IMG/VR virus record: IMGVR_UViG_3300043178_000071
Coordinates: 1-43,511 of that record
DNA from: a virus
Direction: 5' to 3' (one strand)
Length of the DNA stretch: 43,511 bases
Shown: piece after piece, positions 1 to 43,511 of the stretch
Position numbering within the stretch: the first letter of the stretch is position 1
Layout of the letters: each line of letters begins with the position of its first letter
Notes under the pieces: model-generated
Database searches by the model: none
What the model was told of the DNA's origin: nothing
Seen by the model: only the letters and a program-made list of their open reading frames with translations
Translations under genes and position numbers: made by a program

Positions 1-603
1 TCAGTGGCCGATTGACAAACTGCGGAACGAGACACCCGAGCAGCGGAGGTAGATCGCGTGATTGCGTATCTCGGCAGCGACCAACTGAAGCAGGATTTCC
101 TCGCACAGGTCGCTCTACACGAACAGGCGGATGCGTTCGTCAAGGGCACCTACGGGAAAATGATGGATGGGCAGTTCCGTGGTTGCGCGGTTGGATGCTC
201 GCTGCACAGCCTGAATCTGATGAATGGCAAGCCGCCGCTGTATGACACGTCCGTCCATGCACGATACGAGGCCGAATTGGGGCTGCCCGCATGGCTGGCG
301 TGGCTCCAAGATTACCTCTTCGAGGCGCTGCCTGATGCGGCGGCGGCGACATGGCCGCGGCGATTCGCGGAGGCGGTGCCGGTGGGGGCGGTGATTGATC
401 AGCGGGCGCTGGCGCGGGTGCTGGTGTGGATCTTGACCGATGCCGAGTGGGGCATGGCGCGCACCACGGAGCGGGCGGATGTGCGGGAGTGGTGCCAGAC
501 GATCGCGGCATATATCGCGGCGGACGCGACGGGATCGGCCACGGCCGACCACCGGGAGGCAGCCGCGAGGGCCGCGAGGGCCGCGAGGGCGGCGTGGGAC
601 GCG
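1..603. repeat. Terminal direct repeat, copy 1. The window is one 42,908-bp genome unit plus a 603-bp overlap
   Basis: Bases 1-603 recur at 42909-43511 (offset 42908) in every stretch I compared. ORFs 12..245 and 42920..43153 give identical peptides. Confidence 0.95.
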
Positions 604-798
604 TGGGACGCGTGGGACGCGTGGGACGCGTGGGACGCGAGGGCCGCGTGGGCCGCGAGGGCCACGTGGGCCGCGAGGGCGGCGAGGGCGGCGAGGGCCA
701 CGTGGGACGCGTGGCCCACGTGGGCCGCGAGGGCCGCGTGGATCGTGGCGCTCTCTGAATATGTGCTGACGGTGCTCCGCGAGGCTCCACGCGCATAG
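58..798 (+). CDS. Hypothetical protein: ~168-aa N-terminal domain followed by 20 tripeptide repeats (A/D/P)-(A/T)-(R/W)
   Basis: GTG start and a 246-aa ORF. The C-terminus reads [36 protein letters not shown]... Third codon positions are G/C-rich, like other genes here. Confidence 0.6.
562..741 (+). repeat. Tandem array of 20 x 9 bp (gccgcgagg / gacgcgtgg / gccacgtgg variants), in frame within CDS 58..798
   Basis: Units counted directly from 562. Every unit is three codons. Confidence 0.9.
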
Positions 799-1143: not shown

Positions 1144-1327
1144 ACAGGCGTCCGTGTATCGCTGCACCTGTGGGCGAAAGGTGCCCGTGGTGAGAGTGAC
1201 ACCATATGAATTCCCCTGGCGCTGCGTGTGTGGTCGGGCCGGAGTGATCGCGTGGGAGACGGCGAATCCCCCGCCGACGTTTAGTGGCGAGATGCAGCCG
1301 AGTTTGTTCCACGTGTTGAGTGAGTGA
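1115..1327 (+). CDS. Small zinc-ribbon-like protein (CxC...CxC)
   Basis: The peptide contains [30 protein letters not shown] starts are possible at 1115 or 1136. The stop overlaps the next gene start. Confidence 0.5.
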
Positions 1328-3567
1328 CGATGACCTCATACAAGGCCTTTCTTGAGACGAAGCATCCGCGATGGTCGGTGCGAGACTCGGCGCCTGACCT
1401 ACCCGTCCCTGATGCTCACCTGTTCGAGTGGCAGCGCGTGATTGTGTCGCGCGTGTTCCGCCTACAGCGCGGCGCGATTTGGGCGGATACCGGACTGGGT
1501 AAGACCGCCATGCAGCTCACATGGGCGCACGGGGCGGCCGTGGTGACGGGGCGGCCGTCTCTGATTCTGACGCCGCTCGCCGTGGGCGCGCAGACCCTGG
1601 CGGAAGCGGCGCGGTTCGGCATTCCGGCAGAGTCGTGCCGGGGGCGCTGGCCTGATGCGCCCGTGCATGTCCTGAACTATGAGCAGCTCGCGCATGTGGA
1701 CGCGGGCCGCTACGGAGCCGTGGTGCTCGATGAGTCCAGTATTCTGAAAGCCTATTCGGGCGTGACCAAACAGCGGTTAATCGAGACATTCGCGGACACG
1801 CCGTATCGGCTGTGCTGCACGGCGACGCCTGCCCCGAATGATCATCTCGAAATTGGAAATCACGCCGAGTTTCTTGGTGTGATGCGGTCACATGAGATGA
1901 TCATGCGCTGGTTCATCAATGACCCGATGGAGGCCGGCGCCTATCGCCTCAAGGGTCATGCGCGGGCGGCATTCTGGGAATGGGTCGCTTCGTGGGCCGT
2001 CGCGCTGCGGACGCCGGCGGATTGGGGCTTCGACGCGTCAGGGTTCACGCTGCCGGAGTTACGCGTGCATCGCGTCTCTGTCGGCAGCGTGGACCTCGAA
2101 CCGGACGATGGTCACCTGTTCGCCCTCAGCAAGTCCTCGGCCACTGGTCTGCATCGGAGCCTACGCGTGTCCAGCGTGGCACGTGCGGAACGTGCCGCGG
2201 CGATCGTCGCGGCTGAGCCTGGGGAATCGTGGCTCGTGTGGTCGCACACCAACTATGACGCCGATGCGTTTCGCGCGGTGTGCCCGGACGCGGTCGAAGT
2301 GCGCGGGAGCGACAGCGAGGCGAAAAAAGAAGAACTCCTGAGCGGGTTCAGTGCGGGTCGCATACGCGTATTGCTGACGAAGCCCTCGATTGCCGGGTTC
2401 GGCCTGAACTGGCAGCACTGCGCCCGCGTCGTGTTCCTGGGGCCGTCGTATTCCTACGAGGAGTGGTATCAGGCGATTCGCCGTGTCTGGCGTTATGGCC
2501 AACAGCGGCCCGTGGAGGTATATGCCGTGAGTGCAGATAACGAGTCAGCGGTCCAGAACGCGATTGTCGCGAAGGCGGCGGCGCACTCGACGCTGCAGGG
2601 GGAACTCATTCGGGCCTCAGCCAAGACGCTGGGGCTGGGCGGCTCGCCCGGACTGATGACACGGACATTGACACGGGACGTGGGCGACGGCTGGGAGCTC
2701 TGGACCGGCGATTGTGTGGAGGGCGTGGCCACGTTGCCGGATGCGTCTATCGACCACTGCGTGTTCTCGCCGCCGTTCGCCAATCTCTACCTCTACTCCG
2801 ATGGCCTCGCGGATATGGGGAACTGCGTGAGTTATGACGAGTTCTGGGAGCACTATGCGTTCCTCGCGAGGGGCCTCCATCGGGTGATGCGTCCGGGTCG
2901 CATCGTGGCCGTGCATTGTAAGGACTTGCCGCGCTACAAAGGGCGCGATGGGTCAGCGGGCCTCTATGACTTCCCTGGGGAATTGATCCGCGTGATGACG
3001 GGGGCCGGGTTCACGTATCACAGCCGCGTCACGATTTGGAAAGACCCTGTCATCGAGATGCAGCGCACAAAGAATCACGGATTGCTCTATAAACAATTGC
3101 GGAAAGACTCGTGCGCCTCCCGTATGGGCATGGCGGATTTCGTCGTGGCGTTTCGGAAGTGGGATGGCTTGGGCACGGACGCAGAAGTCGGCGTGCCTCA
3201 CACGCGGGAGGAGTTCCCCTTAGAGCGGTGGCAGCAGTGGGCATCTCCGGTCTGGGATGACATTCAGCAAACGCGCGTGCTCACGTACATGGACGCGAAG
3301 TCGGACGAGGACGAACGGCATATCTGCCCGTTGCAGCTTGACGTAATCGAGCGATGTCTCACGTTGTGGTCAAATCCAGGGGATGTCGTGCTGTCACCAT
3401 TCGCCGGCATCGGGTCAGAAGGCTACGAATCGATCCGACTGGGGCGGCGGTATATCGGATTCGAGCTCAAGCCGGAGTACGCACAGGTTGCCGTGAAGCA
3501 TCTGCGGGCGGCTGAGCACGCACGGAGGCAGGGGTGTTTGTTCTCCATGACCGGGGCCAGCGCGTGA
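1324..3567 (+). CDS. SNF2-family helicase fused to a beta-class N4/N6 DNA methyltransferase
   Basis: Helicase motifs: ADTGLGKT (I), [10 protein letters not shown] (II), CCTATPAPN (III), GFGLNWQ (V), [11 protein letters not shown] (VI). The MTase half has motif [12 protein letters not shown] before motif [13 protein letters not shown]. The start is GTG 1324 or ATG 1330. Confidence 0.85.
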
Positions 3568-3824
3568 GCCTGACGGATCGGGTCGTCGCGTATTTCCGCG
3601 CGCATCCCGGCGAGTGGATTGACGGCCGCGTGCTGGCGACGGTCGGCGGGGCCTATGCGTGGCGTAGCAGAGTGTCAGATGCACGCCGGCAAGGGTTGGA
3701 CATCGAGAACCGCACGCGGCGGGTGCGGAACGGGCTGACGTCCTGGACGGTGAGCGAGTATCGGTATCGGTCTGGGGCGGTTGAGCAGGCGGCGGCGCCG
3801 CTTGAGGACCAGGCGCCAGCGTGA
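3564..3824 (+). CDS. Small putative winged-helix DNA-binding protein
   Basis: GTG 3564 overlaps the stop of the upstream gene (GTGA). The peptide reads [45 protein letters not shown]. The fold call is a pattern impression only. Confidence 0.55.
   Translation: MSLTDRVVAYFRAHPGEWIDGRVLATVGGAYAWRSRVSDARRQGLDIENRTRRVRNGLTSWTVSEYRYRSGAVEQAAAPLEDQAPA
3797..3814. repeat. 18-bp direct repeat gccgcttgaggaccaggc, copy 1 (3' end of the wHTH gene)
   Basis: The exact 18-mer recurs at 4026..4043, and ttgagc precedes both copies. Confidence 0.9.
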
Positions 3825-4009
3825 AGCCCTACTACGAGCACGGTGGGATCACGATCTATCACGGGGATTGCTTCGAGATCCTCCACGACCTGCGAGATGT
3901 GGGTGCGGTTCTGACTGACCCGCCGTACTCAAGTGGGGGGGCATTTCGTGGAGATCGCATGGTGTCTACACTCAGCAGGAGATCGCATGGTGTCTACACT
4001 CAGCAATGA
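3821..4009 (+). pseudogene. 5' fragment of a DPPY-type (N6A/N4C) DNA methyltransferase gene, truncated after ~46 codons
   Basis: MKPYYEHGGITIYHGDCFEILHDLRDVGAVLTDPPYSSGG is a typical MTase N-terminus with motif IV. The frame then enters a 28-bp tandem duplication and stops. No motif I or C-terminal part lies downstream. Confidence 0.7.
3951..4005. repeat. Tandem duplication, 2 x 27 nt (gagatcgcatggtgtctacactcagca) with a 28-bp period
   Basis: Copies lie at 3951..3977 and 3979..4005, separated by a single g. Confidence 0.9.
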
Positions 4010-4025
4010 AACACCCAAGTGTTGA

Positions 4026-4043
4026 GCCGCTTGAGGACCAGGC
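4026..4043. repeat. 18-bp direct repeat gccgcttgaggaccaggc, copy 2
   Basis: Identical to 3797..3814. The two copies flank the methyltransferase fragment. Confidence 0.9.
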
Positions 4044-4061
4044 ACGATAAGAGATGGTGGG

Positions 4062-4325
4062 ATGGGCATGAGGAAGATTGTCGAGGACGTGAGTGGTGAG
4101 GGGCTGGAGAAACTCCTCGGTGCGCGGGTCACGCTGTTCTGCGTGAACTACATTTACACCGGGAAACTGGTGGGTGTGGGCGCGACGTGCGTGCTCTTGG
4201 ACGACCCGGCCATTGTGTACGACACGGGACCATTCAGCGAGAAGGACTGGAAGAACGCGGAGTCGTTGCCGAACAGCATCTATGTGATGCTATCGGCGGT
4301 GGAAGCGTGCGGAGTGGTCAAGTGA
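4062..4325 (+). CDS. Hypothetical 87-aa protein, possibly a small Sm/Hfq-like beta-barrel
   Basis: Third codon positions are G/C-rich. The segment ARVTLFCVNYIYTGKLVGVGATCVLLDDPAIVY loosely resembles the Hfq Sm1 region ([25 protein letters not shown]...VY). Confidence 0.6.
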   Translation: MGMRKIVEDVSGEGLEKLLGARVTLFCVNYIYTGKLVGVGATCVLLDDPAIVYDTGPFSEKDWKNAESLPNSIYVMLSAVEACGVVK

Positions 4326-4360
4326 TTCGCGGACAACGGCAACGGTGGGCGTGGGTGGAG

Positions 4361-4540
4361 TCGGGGTGGTCGCGGGTGGGGTCGCGGTCGTGGTCGCGGG
4401 CGGGGTCGCGGTTGTGGTCGCGGTCGCGGTCGTGGTCGGGGTCGGGGTCGATGGCGTGGTCGGTGTTGGGGTTGTGGTCGTGGTCGCGGGCGGGGTCGTG
4501 GTCGCGGGCGGGGTCGTGGTCGCGGTCGCGGTCGCGGGCG
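4361..4540. repeat. Microsatellite of ~30 hexamers (N-G-G-T-C-G), almost free of adenine on the + strand
   Basis: Read directly from the sequence. The 18-bp super-unit gtggtcgcgggcggggtc occurs at 4390, 4480 and 4498. Only two A residues (4359, 4451) occur between 4343 and 4545. Confidence 0.9.
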
Positions 4541-4542
4541 TG

Positions 4543-4572
4543 TTGACATCGCGCCCCGCGAACGGGTAAAGT
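4543..4572 (+). promoter_or_regulatory. Sigma70-type promoter: TTGACA, 18-nt spacer, TAAAGT
   Basis: A perfect -35 lies at 4543..4548 and a -10-like TAAAGT at 4567..4572. The site is intergenic, directly after the hexamer array. Confidence 0.55.
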
Positions 4573-4578
4573 GCGGGG

Positions 4579-4965
4579 TGAAAGGTGACGGCCCGCAGGG
4601 ATGGTGAGTCCCTGCCGGTCCATGCGATTCGTGAGGGGAACGAATCAGGTGCAGGCCATTTCCAGGCCGTCGCATCGATTCTACCCTATCTACCCTCCCT
4701 CACACAATCGGTCAACCTGCGCGGGGCGCTGGGAGCCAAGCTGACGCCACTGGGGCGTCCCGTGGTACGGCCATGACCAGGACTGCACCATGGCACCGTG
4801 GAGCCGAAGGGCCAGAGCGGGCAGGGGACGCCGTGCAGCGGCGGACGACAGTCTGGCCCGACCCGTGCCGCGCTGTCACGCGATGCATGGGGCCACGAAC
4901 GGGCGACGGCCACGGGCTGACGACTTCGTTGTGGTCACGGCTGCCCCTCTTTAGGGGAAGCCTGT
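4579..4965 (+). ncRNA. Candidate structured non-coding RNA or long 5' leader (class unknown)
   Basis: It lies downstream of the consensus promoter, and no ORF here has genome-typical codon bias. Several perfect hairpins and a 32-nt G-free CU-rich stretch are present, with a strong terminal hairpin at 4939..4962. The ends are approximate. Confidence 0.35.
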
Positions 4966-5004
4966 GCCTCGTGGGCTCTGGCGCTGGGCTGATAGGGGGA
5001 GGCG

Positions 5005-5385
5005 ATGGGGGGGATAGAGTTCCCGGTACGGGACGGTCAGTGGTGGACGCTCGCGCCGTCGCTGCAGGCGGAGCTGGAGCAGGATTATCCGGCCGTGTCC
5101 GTGGCGGCAGAACTCCGCAAGGCCCGCGCCTGGCTGGTCGCCAATCCTAGGCGTCGCAAGACGGCCCGCGGGATGCCTCGGTTTCTGGTCGGGTGGCTGA
5201 ATCGGGCGAATCGGGCGACGGGGATCCGGCGCGGGGATCGAGCGGTCATCATTGCGCCGCCGACGTGGGCCTGCCCTCACGATCCCTCCTGCCGGGAGGC
5301 GTATCGGTGTGCGCAGCGGCAGGAGCTCGGTGAAGCCCGCTGGCGTGAGCTGTTTCCGAGCTGGTTCACGCAGGCGGGCGGATGA
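5005..5385 (+). CDS. Hypothetical protein (126 aa)
   Basis: ATG preceded by GGGGGAGG at 4995..5002. The peptide contains ELRKARAWLVANPRRRKTARGMPRFLVGWLNRA, a motif style I associate with phage replication-organiser C-termini (unverified). Confidence 0.7.
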   Translation: MGGIEFPVRDGQWWTLAPSLQAELEQDYPAVSVAAELRKARAWLVANPRRRKTARGMPRFLVGWLNRANRATGIRRGDRAVIIAPPTWACPHDPSCREAYRCAQRQELGEARWRELFPSWFTQAGG

Positions 5386-5403: not shown

Positions 5404-6301
5404 ATGAGCGTCTACTACAACGAGATCGACCAATTCGCGGCGGCGTGGCTGCGGGCACTGATGCGGGCCGGAGAGATTCCCGAGGGCGAGGTCGATGAGC
5501 GGTCAATTGCCGATGTTTCCCCGGACGACGTCCGAGGCTTCCGCCAGTGCCACTGGTTCGCTGGCATTGGCGGGTGGGCCTACGCGCTTCGACTTGCCGG
5601 GTGGGGTGACGAGCCCATCTGGACCGGGTCCTGTCCCTGCCAGCCGTTCACGTTGGCGGGGAAAGGTGACGGCGAAGCCGATCCCCGCGATCTTTGGCCA
5701 GCGTGGGCACAGCTCATCCGCGAGTGCCGCCCTGTCGTCATCGCTGGTGAGCAAGTTGCGGCGGCGGCTCGGGGAATCTGGCTCGACCGTCTTTGTGCAG
5801 ACCTGGAAGGAATTGGCTACGCCGTCGGGGCGGGTGTATTGGGGGCACACAGCGTCGGGGCGCCGCACCTCCGGCAACGGCTCTGGTTCGTGGCGGACGC
5901 CGATGGCGAGCGACACCAGGGGCGCGCGGGTCGATACGCGGACCGGAGCGGACGGGATCCGGGGCGGGGCACACGCTAAATCTGCAGGATTACGTGAGGC
6001 AGGCATGGGTCACACCAATCGCGCGGGACTGGAAGGACAACGCCGGGATGGCCGAAACGGGCACGAACCCGGACGGGTCGGAGCGGACGCGGCTGGATCA
6101 GTTGCCGCGGCAGGCACATGGGGTGATCTCGTCTGGCTCCCCTGCCGAGACGGGAAAGCGCGGCCAACTCAACCCGGCCTTTTCCCGCTGGCTCATGGGG
6201 TATCCGCCCGCATGGGACGACTGTGCGGTTACGGCAATGCTATCGTGCCGCAGGTCGCGGCGGCGTTCCTCCAAGCCTACCGTGACGCGCGAGAGGGCTG
6301 A
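5404..6301 (+). pseudogene. Phage-type DNA cytosine-5 methyltransferase split over three reading frames (at least 2 frame disruptions)
   Basis: The frame of 5404 carries YNEID.., FAGIGG (I), PCQPF (IV), GEQV (VI) and PHLRQRLWFVA (VIII), then stops at 5979. The frame of 5793 carries LNLQDYVRQAWVTPIARDWKD...LNPAFSRWLMGYPPAWDDC. The frame of 5495 carries GYGNAIVPQVAAAFLQAY (X) and stops at 6301. Confidence 0.6.
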
Positions 6302-6306
6302 AACCA

Positions 6307-6561
6307 GTGAAGCGGTGGCTCGTCTCGGCGGTGGGGATGGCCTGTGGGCGGTGCGGGGCGCGGATTCCGCCCGGTCAGGCGGTGCAGGTGATCACGGGAG
6401 AGACGGGATGGCGTCTGGTGCGGTGTCAGGCGTGCGCGGGGCCGGCGCCGGCGGTGGTGGAGGCGGGGCCGCTGATCGAGGCGATCAAGAAGCCGCGGCT
6501 GTCGCTGCCCAGCACGCGGGAACTAGCGCGGGACTGGAAGGCGCAGCAGGCGGGGTGGTGA
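6307..6561 (+). CDS. Small zinc-ribbon protein (CGRC...CQAC)
   Basis: GTG start 6 nt after the MTase frame-C stop. The 84-aa ORF has two CxxC pairs. Confidence 0.55.
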   Translation: MKRWLVSAVGMACGRCGARIPPGQAVQVITGETGWRLVRCQACAGPAPAVVEAGPLIEAIKKPRLSLPSTRELARDWKAQQAGW

Positions 6562-6567
6562 CGTTGG

Positions 6568-6593
6568 CTGGGTCAGGGAGCTGGGTCAGGGAG
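6568..6593. repeat. Tandem direct repeat, 2 x 13 bp (ctgggtcagggag)
   Basis: Exact copies lie at 6568..6580 and 6581..6593, in the convergent intergenic gap. Confidence 0.85.
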
Positions 6594-6622
6594 TGGCCTG
6601 TCCGGGCATAACCTGGGGAGGA

Positions 6623-6856
6623 TCAGGGCGGATGCCATCGGGCGCGGGCGGCGGCGCGGGCACTGGCAATCCGGTCCTCGGGCGTCAGCCGAGCCGCGCG
6701 GGCTCGTCCACCGAGCGCGTGGACGCTGGGTCGCTCGTCCCCATAGGCGACGAGCGCGGCAATAAGCACGTCGCGCAGGTCAGTCCCGTCGCGGGTGGCG
6801 CGGGCCCGAGCCCGGCGCAGGACCGGGCCCGGGATGCCGTGCAGGCGGTAGTCCAT
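6623..6856 (-). CDS. Ribbon-helix-helix-like small DNA-binding protein with a basic C-terminal GG-ARAA-LTP-R..ARW motif
   Basis: The N-terminus MDYRLHGIPGPVLRRARARATRDGTDLRDVLIAALVAY has a strand-helix-helix pattern. The C-terminus reads GGRARAARLTPEDRIASARAAARARW. Confidence 0.6.
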   Translation of the reverse strand: MDYRLHGIPGPVLRRARARATRDGTDLRDVLIAALVAYGDERPSVHALGGRARAARLTPEDRIASARAAARARWHPP

Positions 6857-7759: not shown

Positions 7760-8050
7760 ATGCCGTGGCAGAAAGGTCAGTCGGGTAATCCGCGCGGGCG
7801 GAAGACGGCGGGCGAGGCGCTCTGCGAGCAAATCCGCCGCGCCATTACGCCCGAGGACCGGGCGAAGATGTTCGCGCAGCTGCGGCTGCTCGCGTGTGAG
7901 CCGCATGGCGACCCGCACGCCCGGATCAAAGCGGCCGAGTGGATCGCCAAGCACGGCTGGCCCGAGGAAGCCCGCGGCCAGACGACGGTCACGACAGACG
8001 GCCGGACCACCACGGTGACGCACGTCTACATCACCGCCCCGGATGCCTAG
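7760..8050 (+). CDS. terS: Putative terminase small subunit (W-x-K-G-Q-S-G-N-P-x-G-R family)
   Basis: The N-terminus is MPWQKGQSGNPRGRK. It is immediately upstream of, and overlaps, the large terminase gene. Confidence 0.65.
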   Translation: MPWQKGQSGNPRGRKTAGEALCEQIRRAITPEDRAKMFAQLRLLACEPHGDPHARIKAAEWIAKHGWPEEARGQTTVTTDGRTTTVTHVYITAPDA

Positions 8051-9548
8051 TCTCGACGTCGCTGCCGCCCTGGCGACACTACCGCCGCCGAGGGCCGGCG
8101 AACAGCGCATGGTGTGGACCGGCGTCATTGCGCATTTCATGGGGGATCCGACGCGCCTGATCGATTGTGAGGGCGCCTTCCGCGCCGGCAAGACCACCGC
8201 CGCGTTGTGGAAGGTTTTTACGTCTACACAAGATCATCCCGGTATCCATTGGCTCATCTGCCGCTACAGTGATGGCGACACGAAATCGGTGCTCCTGCCT
8301 CAGTGGCGAGCCGTGCTGCGCACGGCCGGCGTGACCCCGACGTGGGACCCGGTCGCACACTGTGATGAGCTGCCGAACGGGAGCCGCGTGTATATCCTCG
8401 GGCTCAAGGCACAGGACCAGGTGAGTCGCTACGCCAAACTGCGCGGGCGGACGCTCGCTGGCGTGTATGTCGATCAGGCCGAAGAATTACCCGCGGACGT
8501 CTACCAAGAGCTCGTCGGGCGACTGTCGCAATCCGGCTATCCCCATCAATTGCTCCTGACGCCGAACCCGCCTGACGAAGGACACTGGCTCGCCCGCGAG
8601 TTCCCCGAGGACAACCGGATCGCGGGGCGCCACTACTATAGTGTCCCGGTCTACGCGAACGCGCACAATCTGCCACCGGAAGCGATCGCGGGACTGGAAG
8701 CCGCGTATCCGCCGGCGCATCCGAAACACCGTAGCGCGGTGTTGGGCCTGCGCGGGCTGAACGTCGTCGGGGAACCGGTGTATGGGCACGCCTTCCGGCG
8801 TGATCTCCATGTCCGACCACTCGTTCCCGATCCCCAGCTCCCGCTGCTCGAATCGATCGACTACGGTAAGCACCACCCGTGTGTCGTGTGGGCCCAATAC
8901 ACCCCGCTCGGGGCGCTGCACGTCCTCGGCGGGATACTTGGACAGGATCTCTATCTAGAAGACTTCGCCCCACTCGTGCTGCAGTATCGGCAGCAGTGGT
9001 TTCCGCGCACGGCGGGCGTGATGACGTGCTGTGACCCGGCCGGGAGCCACGACAATTCGCAGGGCATCCGGCTGAACGGCGTCCAGGTGCTCAAGACACA
9101 TGGGTTGCATCCGCGCTGGCGGGACAATAGCAACGCGCCCGACGTGCGGCTGGCGATGGTCGAACGACTGGCGGCGCTGATGCGGAAGCGCACGGCGGGC
9201 GGGGAAGCCTTTGGCGTGGCGGCGGATGCGCGATGGCTGCGGATCGCCCCGTCGCGCGTGGTGCCGCATGCGTTTGTCGCGGATGCGCTGGAGGCGGGCT
9301 ACGTGTGGGACGAGCACATGGTCTCGGTCGGTAGTAAGCAGGTCCGCCGGCCGAAGAAAGATGGCTGGTTTGAGCACGGCATGAACTGCCTGGAGTATGT
9401 CGAGCTGAACTTCGGCGGAGTGCAGCCGACGCTAGAGCAGGTCGCGCGCCGGGCGACCGCCCAGGAGCGGCTGGCGCTCAGGCGGTCGCAGCAGGATCGC
9501 GACTCATGGCGGTGGCAACCGGTGCGGGTTGGGCGTGGTGGCTACTGA
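8043..9548 (+). CDS. terL: Terminase large subunit
   Basis: Walker A is GAFRAGKTTAALWK and Walker B-like is VYVDQAEEL. At 501 aa it sits between the terS-like gene and the portal. Confidence 0.9.
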   Translation: MPSLDVAAALATLPPPRAGEQRMVWTGVIAHFMGDPTRLIDCEGAFRAGKTTAALWKVFTSTQDHPGIHWLICRYSDGDTKSVLLPQWRAVLRTAGVTPTWDPVAHCDELPNGSRVYILGLKAQDQVSRYAKLRGRTLAGVYVDQAEELPADVYQELVGRLSQSGYPHQLLLTPNPPDEGHWLAREFPEDNRIAGRHYYSVPVYANAHNLPPEAIAGLEAAYPPAHPKHRSAVLGLRGLNVVGEPVYGHAFRRDLHVRPLVPDPQLPLLESIDYGKHHPCVVWAQYTPLGALHVLGGILGQDLYLEDFAPLVLQYRQQWFPRTAGVMTCCDPAGSHDNSQGIRLNGVQVLKTHGLHPRWRDNSNAPDVRLAMVERLAALMRKRTAGGEAFGVAADARWLRIAPSRVVPHAFVADALEAGYVWDEHMVSVGSKQVRRPKKDGWFEHGMNCLEYVELNFGGVQPTLEQVARRATAQERLALRRSQQDRDSWRWQPVRVGRGGY

Positions 9549-9696: not shown

Positions 9697-9792
9697 GCCA
9701 GACGACGGGGGTCTTTCCGGCGCTTACAGACGGTGTGCGCAAGTCTCCACGACCGCCGCGGCGACCGCGGCCGACGAAGAAAGGCTGACCGG

Positions 9793-11841
9793 ATGGCGAC
9801 CATGCGCGACCCCTTCGAAGTCCGCCTGAATGACGACCAACGGAAGGTCTTCGGGCTGTGGCTGTGCGACGAGATTCAGCGGGGGATTGACGCGCGAGGC
9901 GCGTCGACGGCTGAATGCGACTACTGGCACCAGCTCTATGAGCAGGCCCGCACGCGGACTCGTGCCCCCTGGCCGGATGCGGCGGACCTCACGAGCTATC
10001 TCGGCTCGGAAAAGGTCGACGCGCTGCAGGCCCGGCTGCTGCGGTCGATCTGGGTCGACCCAGTGTGGACGGTCGAAGGCTGGGGGGATGCAGCCGAACG
10101 AGCGCCGTTTGTCGAGGAATTTCACCAGTGGAAGGCTGAAGAGGAACGGCTGCAGTCCGTATTGGATCGCCTGAGTTTGATTAGCCTCATCGAACCGCGT
10201 GGCCTGCTGGAGATCGCGGAAGGCACGGAGATGCGCCCCGTGCGGAAGTCGGTGCGCGCGAAGGTGGACACCGACCCGGTGACAGGCGGCGTCTACTACG
10301 ACGAGGCGATGCAGCCGCAGCTCGCGATGGGGCTGGATGGGCGCTATGTGGAGGCGCAGGACGGCGAGGCGTATGCCGAGACGGTCATTGACTCCTGGGA
10401 GCGCATCCGCACGGGGCCGGTGTATCGCATCCTGCCGTATCGGGATTCGCTGATTTTGCCGGGGCATGCCCGCGACCAGGACGAGATCTGGGGCTACGGT
10501 AAGCGGTTCTGGCGACCATGGGGTGCGCTCAAGCGCGGGGCCGAGTCAGGCCTGTATGACCGTGACGCGGTCGACCGCATGAGCAGCACGAGCGACCGCG
10601 AGTCCGATCCCGCCCTCGAGCGCGCCGGGCAGGCGGTCGCGCCGAGCGACGACGATCAGGCCGAAAAAGAACTCTGGGAACTGCTCGTGCTCGTCGACCT
10701 CGGGGCGCTGCTGGCGGCGCGCGGGGAACGCGTCCCACGCGGACTTCGGGCGATGGGGCCGCGGTGGTATCTGACCACGGTGCATCTGCAGACTTCGGCC
10801 CTCTTGCGGGTGCAGTATGACGACCTCGAGCGGAGCCGCTTTGTCCCCGTGATCTTGTTCCCGCGCCCGGACCGCTGCACGGAAGGCTATTCGTTCATCG
10901 GCCACAAGCTCGTGACGACGATCGAAGAGCATACCGCTTGGCGAAATATGGCGGCGGACCGAGCGGCGATGGTCGTGCAGGCCCCCATGAAGCGGATGCT
11001 CGGCGCGATCTGGGATCCGCTCGAGCAGCCCTGGGGGCCGAAGGCGGTCATCGACGTGCAGGACATGAACGAAGTGCAGCCGGTGCAGGTGCCGGACTAC
11101 ACGGGGCCGGCGTTCCAGCACCTAGCGATGATGGAGCGCACCGCGGAACGGATCGCCGGGGTGAACGACATCGCGTCGGGGCAGATATCGACCGAACAGC
11201 GGACGCTCGGTGAAGTGCAGATGGCGACCGCGAACAGCGCCGTGCGTATGGATGTCGTGATCCGGCGGTTCCAGGACGCGATGGAGCAGATCGGCGATAT
11301 CCGGCATGCGATCTGGCAACGCACACTGGCGGCGCACCCGGACGGGCTGGAAGCGCCCGCGGCACTGGTCCACAATCTGGAAGGGCGGGGCGTGCCGATT
11401 GACCAGTTCCTGCCGGACAAACGCATCACGGCCAGTCTCTTGCGGGGGGCCTTCCGCTTCAAGCCGCGGGGGAGTGTTGAGACAGCCGATCCACAGCTCA
11501 TGCGACAGGACTTCGTGCTGTTCTTGTCACAAGCCCTGCCGATGTTGGCGCGGACGTTTCCGATGCTGGCGCCAATGTTCGCGACGCCACAGGCGGCGCG
11601 GGCGATGGCGCGGCAGGCGCTACGGTTATTCCGGGTCGAGAACCCGCAGGCGTTTCTGGGGAGTCCGGCGCAGGACCTGGCACAGACGATGCTCACGTCG
11701 CTGCCGGGGATGATGGGCGGGATGCTGGGGCAACCCGGTCTGCCGGGCGCGGGGCCGCCCCTGAACCCATTAGCAGCGGGACAAGCGCCAGATCCGCTGG
11801 GGGCGACGCCGGAACTGTCACCGGGGATGCGGCCGTCATGA
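9793..11841 (+). CDS. Portal protein (682 aa from ATG 9793)
   Basis: Its size and position directly after terL support the call, as does GAAAGG upstream of ATG 9793. The family was not verified. Confidence 0.7.
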   Translation: MATMRDPFEVRLNDDQRKVFGLWLCDEIQRGIDARGASTAECDYWHQLYEQARTRTRAPWPDAADLTSYLGSEKVDALQARLLRSIWVDPVWTVEGWGDAAERAPFVEEFHQWKAEEERLQSVLDRLSLISLIEPRGLLEIAEGTEMRPVRKSVRAKVDTDPVTGGVYYDEAMQPQLAMGLDGRYVEAQDGEAYAETVIDSWERIRTGPVYRILPYRDSLILPGHARDQDEIWGYGKRFWRPWGALKRGAESGLYDRDAVDRMSSTSDRESDPALERAGQAVAPSDDDQAEKELWELLVLVDLGALLAARGERVPRGLRAMGPRWYLTTVHLQTSALLRVQYDDLERSRFVPVILFPRPDRCTEGYSFIGHKLVTTIEEHTAWRNMAADRAAMVVQAPMKRMLGAIWDPLEQPWGPKAVIDVQDMNEVQPVQVPDYTGPAFQHLAMMERTAERIAGVNDIASGQISTEQRTLGEVQMATANSAVRMDVVIRRFQDAMEQIGDIRHAIWQRTLAAHPDGLEAPAALVHNLEGRGVPIDQFLPDKRITASLLRGAFRFKPRGSVETADPQLMRQDFVLFLSQALPMLARTFPMLAPMFATPQAARAMARQALRLFRVENPQAFLGSPAQDLAQTMLTSLPGMMGGMLGQPGLPGAGPPLNPLAAGQAPDPLGATPELSPGMRPS

Positions 11842-12630: not shown

Positions 12631-13533
12631 ATGCCTGAACCGTTACAGATCGAAGACACGCATCCCGAACCGGACACGGCACCGACGCCGGCGGCACCAC
12701 CGGCCGCCGAGGCGGCGGCGACCGCCGCCCCACCCGCCGCCACAGAACCCGAGCCCCTGATCGATCCGGACACGGCCGACCTCACCGATGAACGCGTGCG
12801 CACGGGTCTGTTGGGCGAAATCAAGCGGCTACGGCAGGAAAACCGCCTACTGAAGCCCGCCGCGGCCGATGCGGAACAATTGCGCGCCTGGGCGCACGCC
12901 AATCAGCCATATGTGGAGTTCCTCCAGAAGCATCCCGACTTTCTGGCGGCGCGTCCGGCTGCGCCACCCGCGTCCGCGACGCCGACCGAGGATCCGGATG
13001 CCCTGGAAGCGGCCCAGTTGATGGACTTCTACACGGCCGACGGCAAGGCGGATATCGACAAGGGTCGTCGCTGGCTCGCCCTGCAGGACCGGCGCGCCAG
13101 CCGGCTGGCGCAGCAGGCCGTTGAGCCGTTGGCGCAGAGCCGGACGCAGGCCCAGGCCGAGAACAATTATCGGCAGTTGCTGGGACTCAAGCTCCCGGAT
13201 GGCACGCTGGTGCGAAAGGACACCGTGGACGCCTTCTGGCGCCGAGCGGCGGCGGAACCCAATGGGTTACAGACCTTGGCCGATCCACAGAGTCTGGCGG
13301 GGATCGCGCTGATGGTGCTCGGGGCGGAAGCGATGAGTCGACAACAGCCGGTGGCCCCGCCGTCCCGAGAGCCCCTGGTGACCGAACCCTCGGGGGGCAC
13401 ACCGGGGCAGATGCCGCGCCTGTCCGATCTCGAACGGCGCGTCGTCGCGGCGCGGGGCGGGATCTCCGAAAAGGAGTGGACCGAGAAAACGCGGGGCTTC
13501 CAGCCGGGACGCCCAATGATTCTGGAGGACTAG
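12631..13533 (+). CDS. Putative scaffolding protein (300 aa, Pro/Ala/Glu-rich N-terminus, helical)
   Basis: Position and composition only. Confidence 0.4.
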   Translation: MPEPLQIEDTHPEPDTAPTPAAPPAAEAAATAAPPAATEPEPLIDPDTADLTDERVRTGLLGEIKRLRQENRLLKPAAADAEQLRAWAHANQPYVEFLQKHPDFLAARPAAPPASATPTEDPDALEAAQLMDFYTADGKADIDKGRRWLALQDRRASRLAQQAVEPLAQSRTQAQAENNYRQLLGLKLPDGTLVRKDTVDAFWRRAAAEPNGLQTLADPQSLAGIALMVLGAEAMSRQQPVAPPSREPLVTEPSGGTPGQMPRLSDLERRVVAARGGISEKEWTEKTRGFQPGRPMILED

Positions 13534-42790: not shown

Positions 42791-42960
42791 CGTGGCTCCG
42801 TCGGCTCTGGCGCTGGTTGGTGGGCTCCCCGGCGGACGTGGTGAGCCCTGGGTGGGTGCGCGACCACGCGCGGCGGTCAGGCACGGTGGGCCTCGACGGG
42901 CCATCGATTCAGTGGCCGATTGACAAACTGCGGAACGAGACACCCGAGCAGCGGAGGTAG
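42787..42960 (+). CDS. Possible 57-aa ORF spanning the start of the terminal repeat
   Basis: ATGA overlap with the VRR-NUC stop. Its 3' end is duplicated at 1..52. Confidence 0.35.
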   Translation: MTWLRRLWRWLVGSPADVVSPGWVRDHARRSGTVGLDGPSIQWPIDKLRNETPEQRR

Positions 42961-43511
42961 ATCGCGTGATTGCGTATCTCGGCAGCGACCAACTGAAGCA
43001 GGATTTCCTCGCACAGGTCGCTCTACACGAACAGGCGGATGCGTTCGTCAAGGGCACCTACGGGAAAATGATGGATGGGCAGTTCCGTGGTTGCGCGGTT
43101 GGATGCTCGCTGCACAGCCTGAATCTGATGAATGGCAAGCCGCCGCTGTATGACACGTCCGTCCATGCACGATACGAGGCCGAATTGGGGCTGCCCGCAT
43201 GGCTGGCGTGGCTCCAAGATTACCTCTTCGAGGCGCTGCCTGATGCGGCGGCGGCGACATGGCCGCGGCGATTCGCGGAGGCGGTGCCGGTGGGGGCGGT
43301 GATTGATCAGCGGGCGCTGGCGCGGGTGCTGGTGTGGATCTTGACCGATGCCGAGTGGGGCATGGCGCGCACCACGGAGCGGGCGGATGTGCGGGAGTGG
43401 TGCCAGACGATCGCGGCATATATCGCGGCGGACGCGACGGGATCGGCCACGGCCGACCACCGGGAGGCAGCCGCGAGGGCCGCGAGGGCCGCGAGGGCGG
43501 CGTGGGACGCG
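42909..43511. repeat. Terminal direct repeat, copy 2 (same as 1..603)
   Basis: Same as copy 1. It ends at the window edge inside the 9-bp tandem array. Confidence 0.95.
42966..43511 (+). CDS. Duplicate 5' part of the tripeptide-repeat gene (same as 58..603), cut by the window end
   Basis: It lies inside the terminal overlap. Confidence 0.6.
   Translation, partial: MIAYLGSDQLKQDFLAQVALHEQADAFVKGTYGKMMDGQFRGCAVGCSLHSLNLMNGKPPLYDTSVHARYEAELGLPAWLAWLQDYLFEALPDAAAATWPRRFAEAVPVGAVIDQRALARVLVWILTDAEWGMARTTERADVREWCQTIAAYIAADATGSATADHREAAARAARAARAAWDA

Follow-up and report, generated by a model that had tools for sequence, protein, structure and literature searches.

The window analysed here (i.e., the whole stretch of 43,511 nucleotides of IMG/VR virus record IMGVR_UViG_3300043178_000071) represents a circularly assembled phage genome, in which positions 1..603 recur as 42909..43511, with a unit of 42,908 bp and a GC content of 66%. 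Its genes include a terminase (8043..9548), an SU10-type portal (9733..11841), a helicase-methyltransferase fusion (1324..3567), a truncated N6/N4 methyltransferase fragment (from 3821) and a split C5 methyltransferase (from 5404), and the hexamer array considered below is located in the accessory, DNA-modification region. Two small genes on the + strand make up the array locus. The first (4062..4325) was recognized from its GC3 coding signal, its homologues and AlphaFold2 (AF2) modeling, and encodes an acidic partner protein of 87 aa (subfamily A, with the motif NYIYTGKL) with a predicted Sm/LSm-like fold. The second (4322..4546) is unannotated, was delineated by translation and homology, and encodes a 74-aa (R/G/W)-Ser repeat peptide that ends at a TGA stop codon (4544..4546).

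The GTG start codon of the peptide gene at 4322, which was assigned by homology, overlaps the TGA stop codon of the partner gene (GTGA), and a GGAG Shine-Dalgarno-like motif (4311..4314, + strand) could be read from the sequence 7 nt 5′ of this start, within the end of the partner gene. The peptide starts with a leader, MIRGQRQRW (4322..4348, + strand), that conforms to the pattern M-[IR]-R-[GS]-x-[KR]-Q-[KR]-[YW] obtained from the leaders of 67 distinct peptides, while its repeat core coincides with the hexamer array (4358..4540, + strand) in both sequence and translation. The array is therefore a coding tandem repeat, its 6-nt unit being situated inside an ORF that runs from GTG 4322 to TGA 4546. 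A preliminary description of this DNA had held that no annotated gene explains the array, which has to be corrected in that the W-S-R-S frame contains an ORF with start and stop that spans the array as a whole. The predicted product (MIRGQRQRWAWVESGWSRVGSRSWSRAGSRLWSRSRSWSGSGSMAWSVLGLWSWSRAGSWSRAGSWSRSRSRAC) is 74 aa long, with a pI of 12 and a charge of +12.5, and from W16 onwards contains 29 X-Ser codon pairs, 27 of which have R, G or W as X. The Ser position of these pairs is occupied by S (20 times), A (5), L (3) or V (1), with the A and L codons being one base off TCG. The copy in the window is thus somewhat degenerate, with A, L or V at 9 of its 29 Ser positions.

At the DNA level, the hexamer array reported in the preliminary description proved real. 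Of the 31 hexamers counted from position 4361, 20 conform to [CGT]GGTCG, the others being one-base variants (CGGGCG, NGGTTG and similar), and Tandem Repeats Finder (TRF) returned a period of 6 with 28.3 copies, next to periods of 12 and 24. Recounting also reproduced the 18-mer GTGGTCGCGGGCGGGGTC at 4390, 4480 and 4498, the lack of stop codons in all six frames over 4361..4540, and the TTGACA hexamer at 4543 (4543..4548). The region 4343..4545 indeed contains two A residues (4359 and 4451), against 117 G, 45 T and 39 C, and is the longest stretch of the window with at most two A (the next independent stretch being 113 nt long). Given the window A frequency of 0.166, the binomial probability of at most two A per 203 nt amounts to 9e-14 per position. 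The TTGACA hexamer opens a sigma-70-like promoter consensus (TTGACA-N18-TAAAGT; 4543..4572, + strand) that agrees with the canonical sequence at 10/12 positions and overlaps the peptide stop codon, the TGA being contained within TTGACA. A promoter site was found after the array in 4/56 related loci, compared to 2.5% of background windows, and a post-array promoter was consequently rejected as a feature of the family. The adjacency of the array to a –35 box, which the preliminary description had noted, is hence local to the window genome and falls outside the module.

Relatives of the locus were gathered via the 87-aa partner protein, without reference to the array, which yielded 75 IMG/VR loci with GC contents of 33–64%, all of them from uncultured metagenomic contigs. 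Nearly all of these loci displayed a period-6 array directly 3′ of the partner gene. More specifically, looking for the array in related genomes, as the preliminary description had proposed, showed 69 of the 75 loci to have it in that position, with varying copy number, and in each of these 69 loci the partner gene was followed by an ORF in the X-Ser frame, consisting of a leader and 10–40 (R/G/W)-Ser pairs. In most loci with a missing or shortened peptide ORF, the sequence ends there.

The 67 distinct peptides from these loci measure 19–91 aa (median 63), and their repeat parts are composed chiefly of S (1500 residues), G (600), R (487) and W (456). The serines are encoded by TCG (669), TCT (416), AGC (210), TCA (182), AGT (18) and TCC (5), and among 62 arrays the predominant unit was GGTCG in 27, GGTCT in 17, GGAGC in 9 and GGTCA in 8. 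The TCG, TCT and TCA classes broadly follow genome GC, with NGG-AGC constituting a fourth class. Since TCN and AGY are unconnected Ser codon families, it is the serine that is conserved rather than the DNA. In line with this, when the 62 arrays were compared in all six frames, one identical residue (i.e., Ser) was retained in 62/62 for the X-Ser frame only, and a conserved start and leader were likewise confined to this frame. Among relatives, the leader reads M-[IR]-R-[GS]-x-K-Q-K-[YW], with K changing to R in GC-rich genomes, and these K-to-R and Y-to-W changes indicate that the leader is conserved at the protein level. The adenine-free and G-rich character of the array in the window can in turn be ascribed to X being encoded by NGG codons and Ser by TCG in a genome of 66% GC.

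For the junction between both genes, 61 distinct sequences were inspected. The peptide start overlaps the upstream stop in 39 of them (as ATGA/GTGA 30 times and by 1 nt 9 times), and in a further 21 it lies within 30 nt of the partner stop, with the overlap of start and stop being an arrangement that is typical of translational coupling. Several loci carry peptide genes in tandem, in two or three copies that each have their own start. A programmed frameshift or readthrough fusion of both ORFs was also considered and was rejected as a general explanation, given that the reading-frame offsets were distributed as 44, 8 and 9 over the 61 junctions and that the extra copies have their own starts.

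None of nine peptides in the true frame, nor one ORF in a wrong frame, was present as an exact sequence in a collection of 15 billion proteins, and a protein search with the peptide delivered 1,999 candidates of which none was significant, owing to its low complexity. Family libraries provided no real match to the peptides, their matches to SD repeats being compositional only. When the peptide alone was modeled with AF2 (single sequence), three long beta strands were obtained at low confidence (pLDDT 66, pTM 0.28).

The partner protein has at least 187 close homologues, none of which is named or has a precomputed Pfam domain, and a search of 1.84 billion cluster representatives assigned 527 clusters at 50% identity to its family. 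Its AF2 model, based on a 40-sequence alignment, reached a pLDDT of 84 and features a helix (residues 14–18) followed by six short bent strands, where the canonical Sm fold has five. A Foldseek search of the PDB with this model placed only Sm/LSm chains and LSm-type domains among its 50 best matches, with E values starting at 5e-4 and TM scores of about 0.6, and matches in BFVD were uncharacterised small phage proteins. The partner is therefore predicted to be an Sm-fold protein, by fold only. Sm1/Sm2 motifs or a Pfam LSM/Hfq domain were not detected, as the partner in the window had no Pfam match and the match of one homologue to LSM14 stayed below threshold (E 0.13), and a sequence search of PDB chains revealed no Sm or Hfq match either. 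Pfam, PHROGs and NCBIfam hold no entry for the partner family, a match in PADLOC was at chance level (E 0.033), and family libraries gave no real match for either of the two partner subfamilies. Tandem Sm-Sm fusion proteins occur within the family, as would be expected for ring formers, and constitute the one hint of a ring. The partners are acidic (median pI 4.8) and the peptides basic (median charge +9.5). RNA binding does not necessarily follow for an Sm-like protein that is acidic.

IMG/VR was also scanned for the DNA pattern (GGTCNN)7GGTC, which returned at least 120 stretches. Among the 120 matches listed, 74 had a homologous small ORF just 5′ of the array, part of which belonged to a second partner subfamily (motifs FIRTVT...AAWIADTGRF...EVEP). 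Profile–profile comparison with hhalign identified both subfamilies as homologous (probability 97%, E 1.8e-11). Loci of the second subfamily encode the same (R/G/W)-Ser repeats behind another leader, commonly MNAAxLRxG[FY][DE], and the leader type therefore tracks the partner subfamily. Such tracking would fit recognition between leader and partner, and shared descent could explain it as well. In neither locus set was a third conserved gene found within 3–4.5 kb (RHH, wHTH and enzyme genes included), so that the Sm-fold gene 5′ of the array is the only gene travelling with it. The cassette travels among early regions of phages that are otherwise unrelated.

Taken together, the array is very probably the body of a small protein gene, namely the second gene of a two-gene cassette in which it follows the gene for the Sm-fold partner. 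As deduced from translation, its product is a polycation with a strict alternation of Ser and Arg/Gly/Trp. Owing to this alternation, the chain would tend to be extended or beta-structured, with serines on one side and cationic-aromatic residues on the other. The leader of the peptide might dock on its acidic partner. The latter may assemble into a ring, thereby presenting several Arg/Trp-rich tails, and might at the same time keep the peptide soluble or harmless. The tails would then bind nucleic acid or condense it, with RNA as the most likely target, and the complex could act as an early accessory in host takeover or counter-defence. Arg and Trp residues among Gly/Ser spacers are a composition of nucleic-acid-binding or condensate regions, which points to a function of this kind. 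Nevertheless, the idea of an acidic partner and polycationic tails that bind or condense nucleic acid, as an early accessory, is put forward here tentatively, as a possible rather than a probable function. If true, such a role would amount to a new kind of phage tool for host takeover or counter-defence, in which Arg/Trp "stickers" and Gly/Ser "spacers" in strict alternation are encoded beside the gene of an Sm-fold protein.

The codon usage of the arrays shows a further regularity. Codon statistics were taken from the protein-anchored set only, because the pattern-scan set is biased towards GGTC arrays. In the arrays, 94% of X codons are NGG. Gly is encoded by GGG in 88–93% of array codons, versus 15–26% in long ORFs of the same loci, and Arg by AGG or CGG in 92–95% of array codons, versus 28–34% in long ORFs, at every GC level. 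In the leaders of the same genes, NGG accounts for 31% of Arg and Gly codons. For Ser, TCC and AGT are almost never used in the arrays. The excess of NGG in arrays compared to leaders therefore suggests that a constraint beyond the amino acids keeps GG at every 6 nt, and a role at the level of the nucleic acid may coexist with coding.

For this invariant GG, the account we prefer is one of unit turnover combined with the single Trp codon. Array units would duplicate and get lost, and after each sweep the diversity at X would be regenerated via first-position changes; NGG units alone would then allow Trp, Arg and Gly to be reached by a single first-position change without ever creating a stop codon. 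Turnover of the array is apparent from contig pairs with 100% identical flanks, in 4/9 of which the array is the sole difference (6, 48, 48 and 90 nt). Judging from these pairs, the array grows and shrinks in multiples of 6 nt, and collapse during short-read assembly could contribute in part to the differences in length. A role of the GG at the RNA level is possible too, i.e., as a ligand for the Sm-like protein, in G4 formation or in slow decoding. The NGG-only rule thus raises the puzzle of how repeat turnover, a single Trp codon and possible RNA-level selection shape a coding microsatellite.

Among the alternatives to the array serving purely as coding sequence, the one that survives best is dual use, in which the translated array would also be an RNA element, either as a TRAP-like autoregulation ligand for the Sm-like protein or as a G4/R-loop tract. 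The excess of GGG for Gly and of AGG/CGG for Arg over long ORFs, its restriction to the arrays as opposed to the leaders, the 6-nt (dipeptide) register that is unbroken in 60/67 arrays, and a partner with a predicted fold of an RNA-binding type all speak for it. However, the RNA of the array in the window does not fold more stably than shuffled sequences (z –1.0, with ViennaRNA as run, which did not score G4), the partner is acidic, and the NGG pattern has another possible explanation in unit turnover and the single Trp codon, which makes dual use rather unlikely. With GG or longer runs every 6 nt and 58% G, the array does qualify as a G4/R-loop motif; these runs are due to the NGG codons and represent a sequence motif only. 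Even less probable, to the point of being distinctly unlikely, is an elaborated version in which the cassette would be a phage ribonucleoprotein system, with an Sm-like ring that docks the leaders and reads (NGGNNN)n RNA, yielding a tailed particle that condenses or sequesters host or phage RNA early on. The array would then be coding sequence and RNA ligand at once.

Dual use brings to mind TRAP and HutP, two ring-shaped proteins whose RNA targets are triplets at even spacing. If the array is indeed an RNA ligand, both situations would share a small oligomeric protein beside RNA that carries a motif at a fixed spacing of 5–7 nt. Unlike in TRAP and HutP, whose fold is unrelated, the periodic tract itself is coding here and the binding is putative.

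Searches for further RNA or DNA elements were negative in the window. Across the window, Rfam had no match at gathering score, relaxing the cut-off to E 10 for 3800..5200 brought up none either, a tRNA/tmRNA scan found none, and the 430-nt tract downstream of the array folds little better than its shuffles (z about –1.8). Comparison of the region with GenBank phages by megablast and blastn disclosed no DNA similarity.

A non-coding DNA platform, one of the candidates of the preliminary description, would make the array an operator, centromere or iteron array for the RHH (6623..6856) or wHTH (3564..3824) protein, or else a replication origin. Some 30 regularly spaced short repeats that adjoin a promoter-like site are what such a platform could look like, but among relatives the repeat DNA varies (with GGTCG, GGTCT, GGTCA or GGAGC as the unit) while its translation is conserved, and the promoter adjacency is not shared. 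Moreover, the Sm-fold gene alone co-occurs with the array and the RHH and wHTH genes do not, the 6-bp period mismatches the DNA helical repeat, and the GC skew does not switch at the array. Rather than an iteron, operator or centromere array, what was found is an array inside a conserved ORF with a unit that differs between relatives, and a DNA platform is therefore very improbable. The two other roles suggested at the time at the nucleic acid level, i.e., a replication origin or G4/R-loop-prone element and a Chi-like decoy, received no specific support: the G-richness follows from the NGG and Ser codons, and a conserved DNA motif of the kind expected for a decoy is absent.

It is just as improbable that the array is a neutral, slippage-prone microsatellite or an assembly artefact. 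Its length does vary between near-identical contigs and assemblies often break within it, but it occupies the same position in 69/75 relatives across their GC range of 33–64%, in frame and with a leader, start and stop, and its dipeptide register is near-perfect. In addition, an independent Logan assembly matches the window base for base from the end of the partner gene up to the first ~85 nt of the array, where it ends. Many public contigs end inside the array as well.

The weakest candidate is a 74-aa Val/Gly/Ala peptide from the frame 4345..4569, which is open and has G at every first codon position; however, the corresponding frame reads Val-x in 53 and Glu-x in 9 of the 62 arrays of relatives, contains stops in 24/62, and offers no conserved start or leader, and the alternative-frame products that were called as genes are inconsistent between loci, so that this peptide is almost certainly not the product. 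The preliminary description was accordingly right in proposing a translated peptide and mistaken as to its frame, the X-Ser frame alone keeping the Ser, the start and the leader.

Several known systems resemble the cassette in part. The SD repeats of the staphylococcal Clf/Sdr adhesins are encoded by 18-bp repeats (GAY TCN GAY TCN GAY AGY), and just like the array they specify X-Ser dipeptides through hexamer and 18-mer DNA repeats, use both Ser codon families and change in copy number by slippage. Yet SD repeats form an acidic, glycosylated stalk in large cell-wall-anchored bacterial proteins, whereas the phage peptide is free-standing, basic, 20–90 aa long, has R, G or W at X, and is paired with an Sm-fold gene. 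The Sm/LSm proteins SmB, SmD1, SmD3 and LSm4 have Arg/Gly-rich C-terminal tails and Hfq has a disordered C-terminal tail. These proteins likewise combine an Sm-fold core (predicted in our case) with a low-complexity, Arg-rich tail, which in their case modulates RNA binding and assembly. In the phage cassette, in contrast, a coupled gene supplies the tail as a polypeptide of its own, which is built of X-Ser with abundant Trp and goes with an acidic core that lacks detectable Sm1/Sm2 motifs.

Precursors of ribosomally synthesized and post-translationally modified peptides (RiPPs) pair with a small, leader-binding RRE protein. The peptide gene is comparable to such precursors in having a short conserved leader and a hypervariable, repetitive core and in sometimes occurring in tandem, and the cassette is comparable to the pair in that a small partner is encoded next door and its subfamily tracks the leader type. 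Unlike in RiPP loci, a conserved modifying enzyme is not present nearby (cf. the lack of any third conserved gene), and the partner is Sm-like and not a PqqD-like winged helix, so what was found is not a RiPP precursor with its RRE.

Outside prokaryotes, the RS domains of SR factors and the products of the C9orf72 GGGGCC repeat are Arg-rich polycations of disordered or extended structure, with RNA and low-complexity proteins as their binding partners (PMC2133142, PMC10275993, PMC10637751). As in the phage cassette, Arg-containing dipeptide repeats arise from G-rich hexanucleotide repeats in these cases (PMC2133142, PMC10275993, PMC10637751). Both are eukaryotic, however, and the C9orf72 products are pathological and made without a normal start, whereas the phage gene has a conserved start, leader and stop, and its peptide alternates Trp and Gly with Arg. 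In archaeal Borg elements, tandem repeats create new disordered protein regions, and share with the arrays that they are fast-evolving, perfectly phased coding tandem repeats of a mobile genome that yield low-complexity segments (PMC9879509). Borg repeats nevertheless arose independently in many unrelated genes, in contrast to the one conserved family with a fixed partner described here (PMC9879509). A search of full-text literature, which included peptide strings, did not find the family or the gene pair described.

Uncultured phage contigs that carry the module number well over a hundred. GenBank phages contributed one uncultured record per subfamily, the GTDB contributed 12 matches that were all located on contigs of metagenome-assembled genomes (MAGs), and no match was obtained among plasmids. 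GenBank record MW202825 carries no annotation for the partner gene or the first peptide copy, and lists the second copy as a hypothetical protein in the X-Ser frame. More generally, gene callers systematically miss or mis-frame the small peptide gene, a Glu-rich frame having been picked in one contig. Because the gene is missed by callers and the partner family is without entries, a widespread mobile cassette of phage early regions has gone unnoticed. Its arrays furthermore break short-read assemblies and resemble non-coding repeats to a reader. The neighbours of the cassette in relatives are early or accessory genes, and in one locus (L099) it is adjoined by an Acb2/Tad1-like gene.

Among related loci in other contigs, the unannotated gene encoding the (Arg/Gly/Trp)-Ser repeat peptide was not confined to a single copy, as two to three tandem peptide genes, each with its own start, were located behind one Sm-like gene in L007, L010, L030, L073 and L112. 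In L112 (GenBank MW202825) these tandem genes span 4256..4616, of which the GenBank annotation includes only the second peptide copy, and the Sm-like gene is unannotated as well. Moreover, a second subfamily of the Sm-like partner, homologous to the first, ca. 90–120 aa long and with the motifs FIRTVT...AAWIADTGRF...EVEP, was found in L118–L237 (e.g., L136, L148 and L202), and the peptides paired with it have MNAAxLRxG[FY][DE] as their leader. Another leader type, the third, reads MIKKSIYK[KR]NIGS. Neither this second partner subfamily nor these two leader types were present in Pfam or PHROGs.

Public contigs often end ca. 60–170 nt past the Sm-like gene, i.e., within the hexamer array that forms the body of the peptide gene (L004, L008, L019, L026, L031, L033, L036, L041, L068, L075 and L113). 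The hexamer repeats are assembly breakpoints, and copy numbers from short-read assemblies therefore need care.

Another tandem array within coding sequence (GCCGCGWGG x20, with periods of 9 and 18) was identified at 562..741 of the window, where it gives rise to repeated AAR/AAW/DAW tripeptides close to the C-terminal end of ORF 58..798 (246 aa), for which Pfam and PADLOC searches returned no match. In this array Arg is encoded by AGG and Trp by TGG, so that both residues differ by the first codon base only, as in the hexamer array. The array recurs at 43470..43511 owing to an exact 603-bp terminal overlap of the window (1..603 equals 42909..43511), and the contig is either a closed circle or a terminally redundant phage genome of 42,908 bp.

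Immediately 5′ of the Sm-like gene (4062..4325), the region 3797..4043 resembles a scar left by a rearrangement or an insertion: it harbors a perfect 28-bp tandem duplication (3950..4005), exactly at which the homology of an N6/N4 methyltransferase-like ORF (3821..4009) stops after ca. 44 aa, and the 18-mer GCCGCTTGAGGACCAGGC is located at both 3797 and 4026. Further downstream, the homology to C5 cytosine methyltransferases is divided between two reading frames that overlap (5404..5979 and 5793..6611), and the 5404..6611 locus is either a pseudogene with a frameshift or the product of an error in the sequence. The stretch of ca. 430 nt that follows the promoter-like site (4575..5004) lacked a GC signal by codon position, had no match in Rfam (E up to 10), contains a 32-nt G-free tract (4678..4709), and had a folding z of ca. 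–1.8 on either strand; it may represent a long 5′UTR or an RNA not yet described. Elsewhere in the window, a 94-nt T-free stretch (12664..12757) lies in ORF 12631..13533, where it codes for an N-terminal segment rich in Pro, Ala, Glu and Thr.

Finally, in one relative (L099, 7330..8004) the Sm-like gene is directly preceded by a gene that encodes an Acb2/Tad1 hairpin domain, which is that of anti-CBASS and anti-Thoeris sponges. This single neighbor hints that the cassette of Sm-like and peptide genes may be located in counter-defence neighborhoods.
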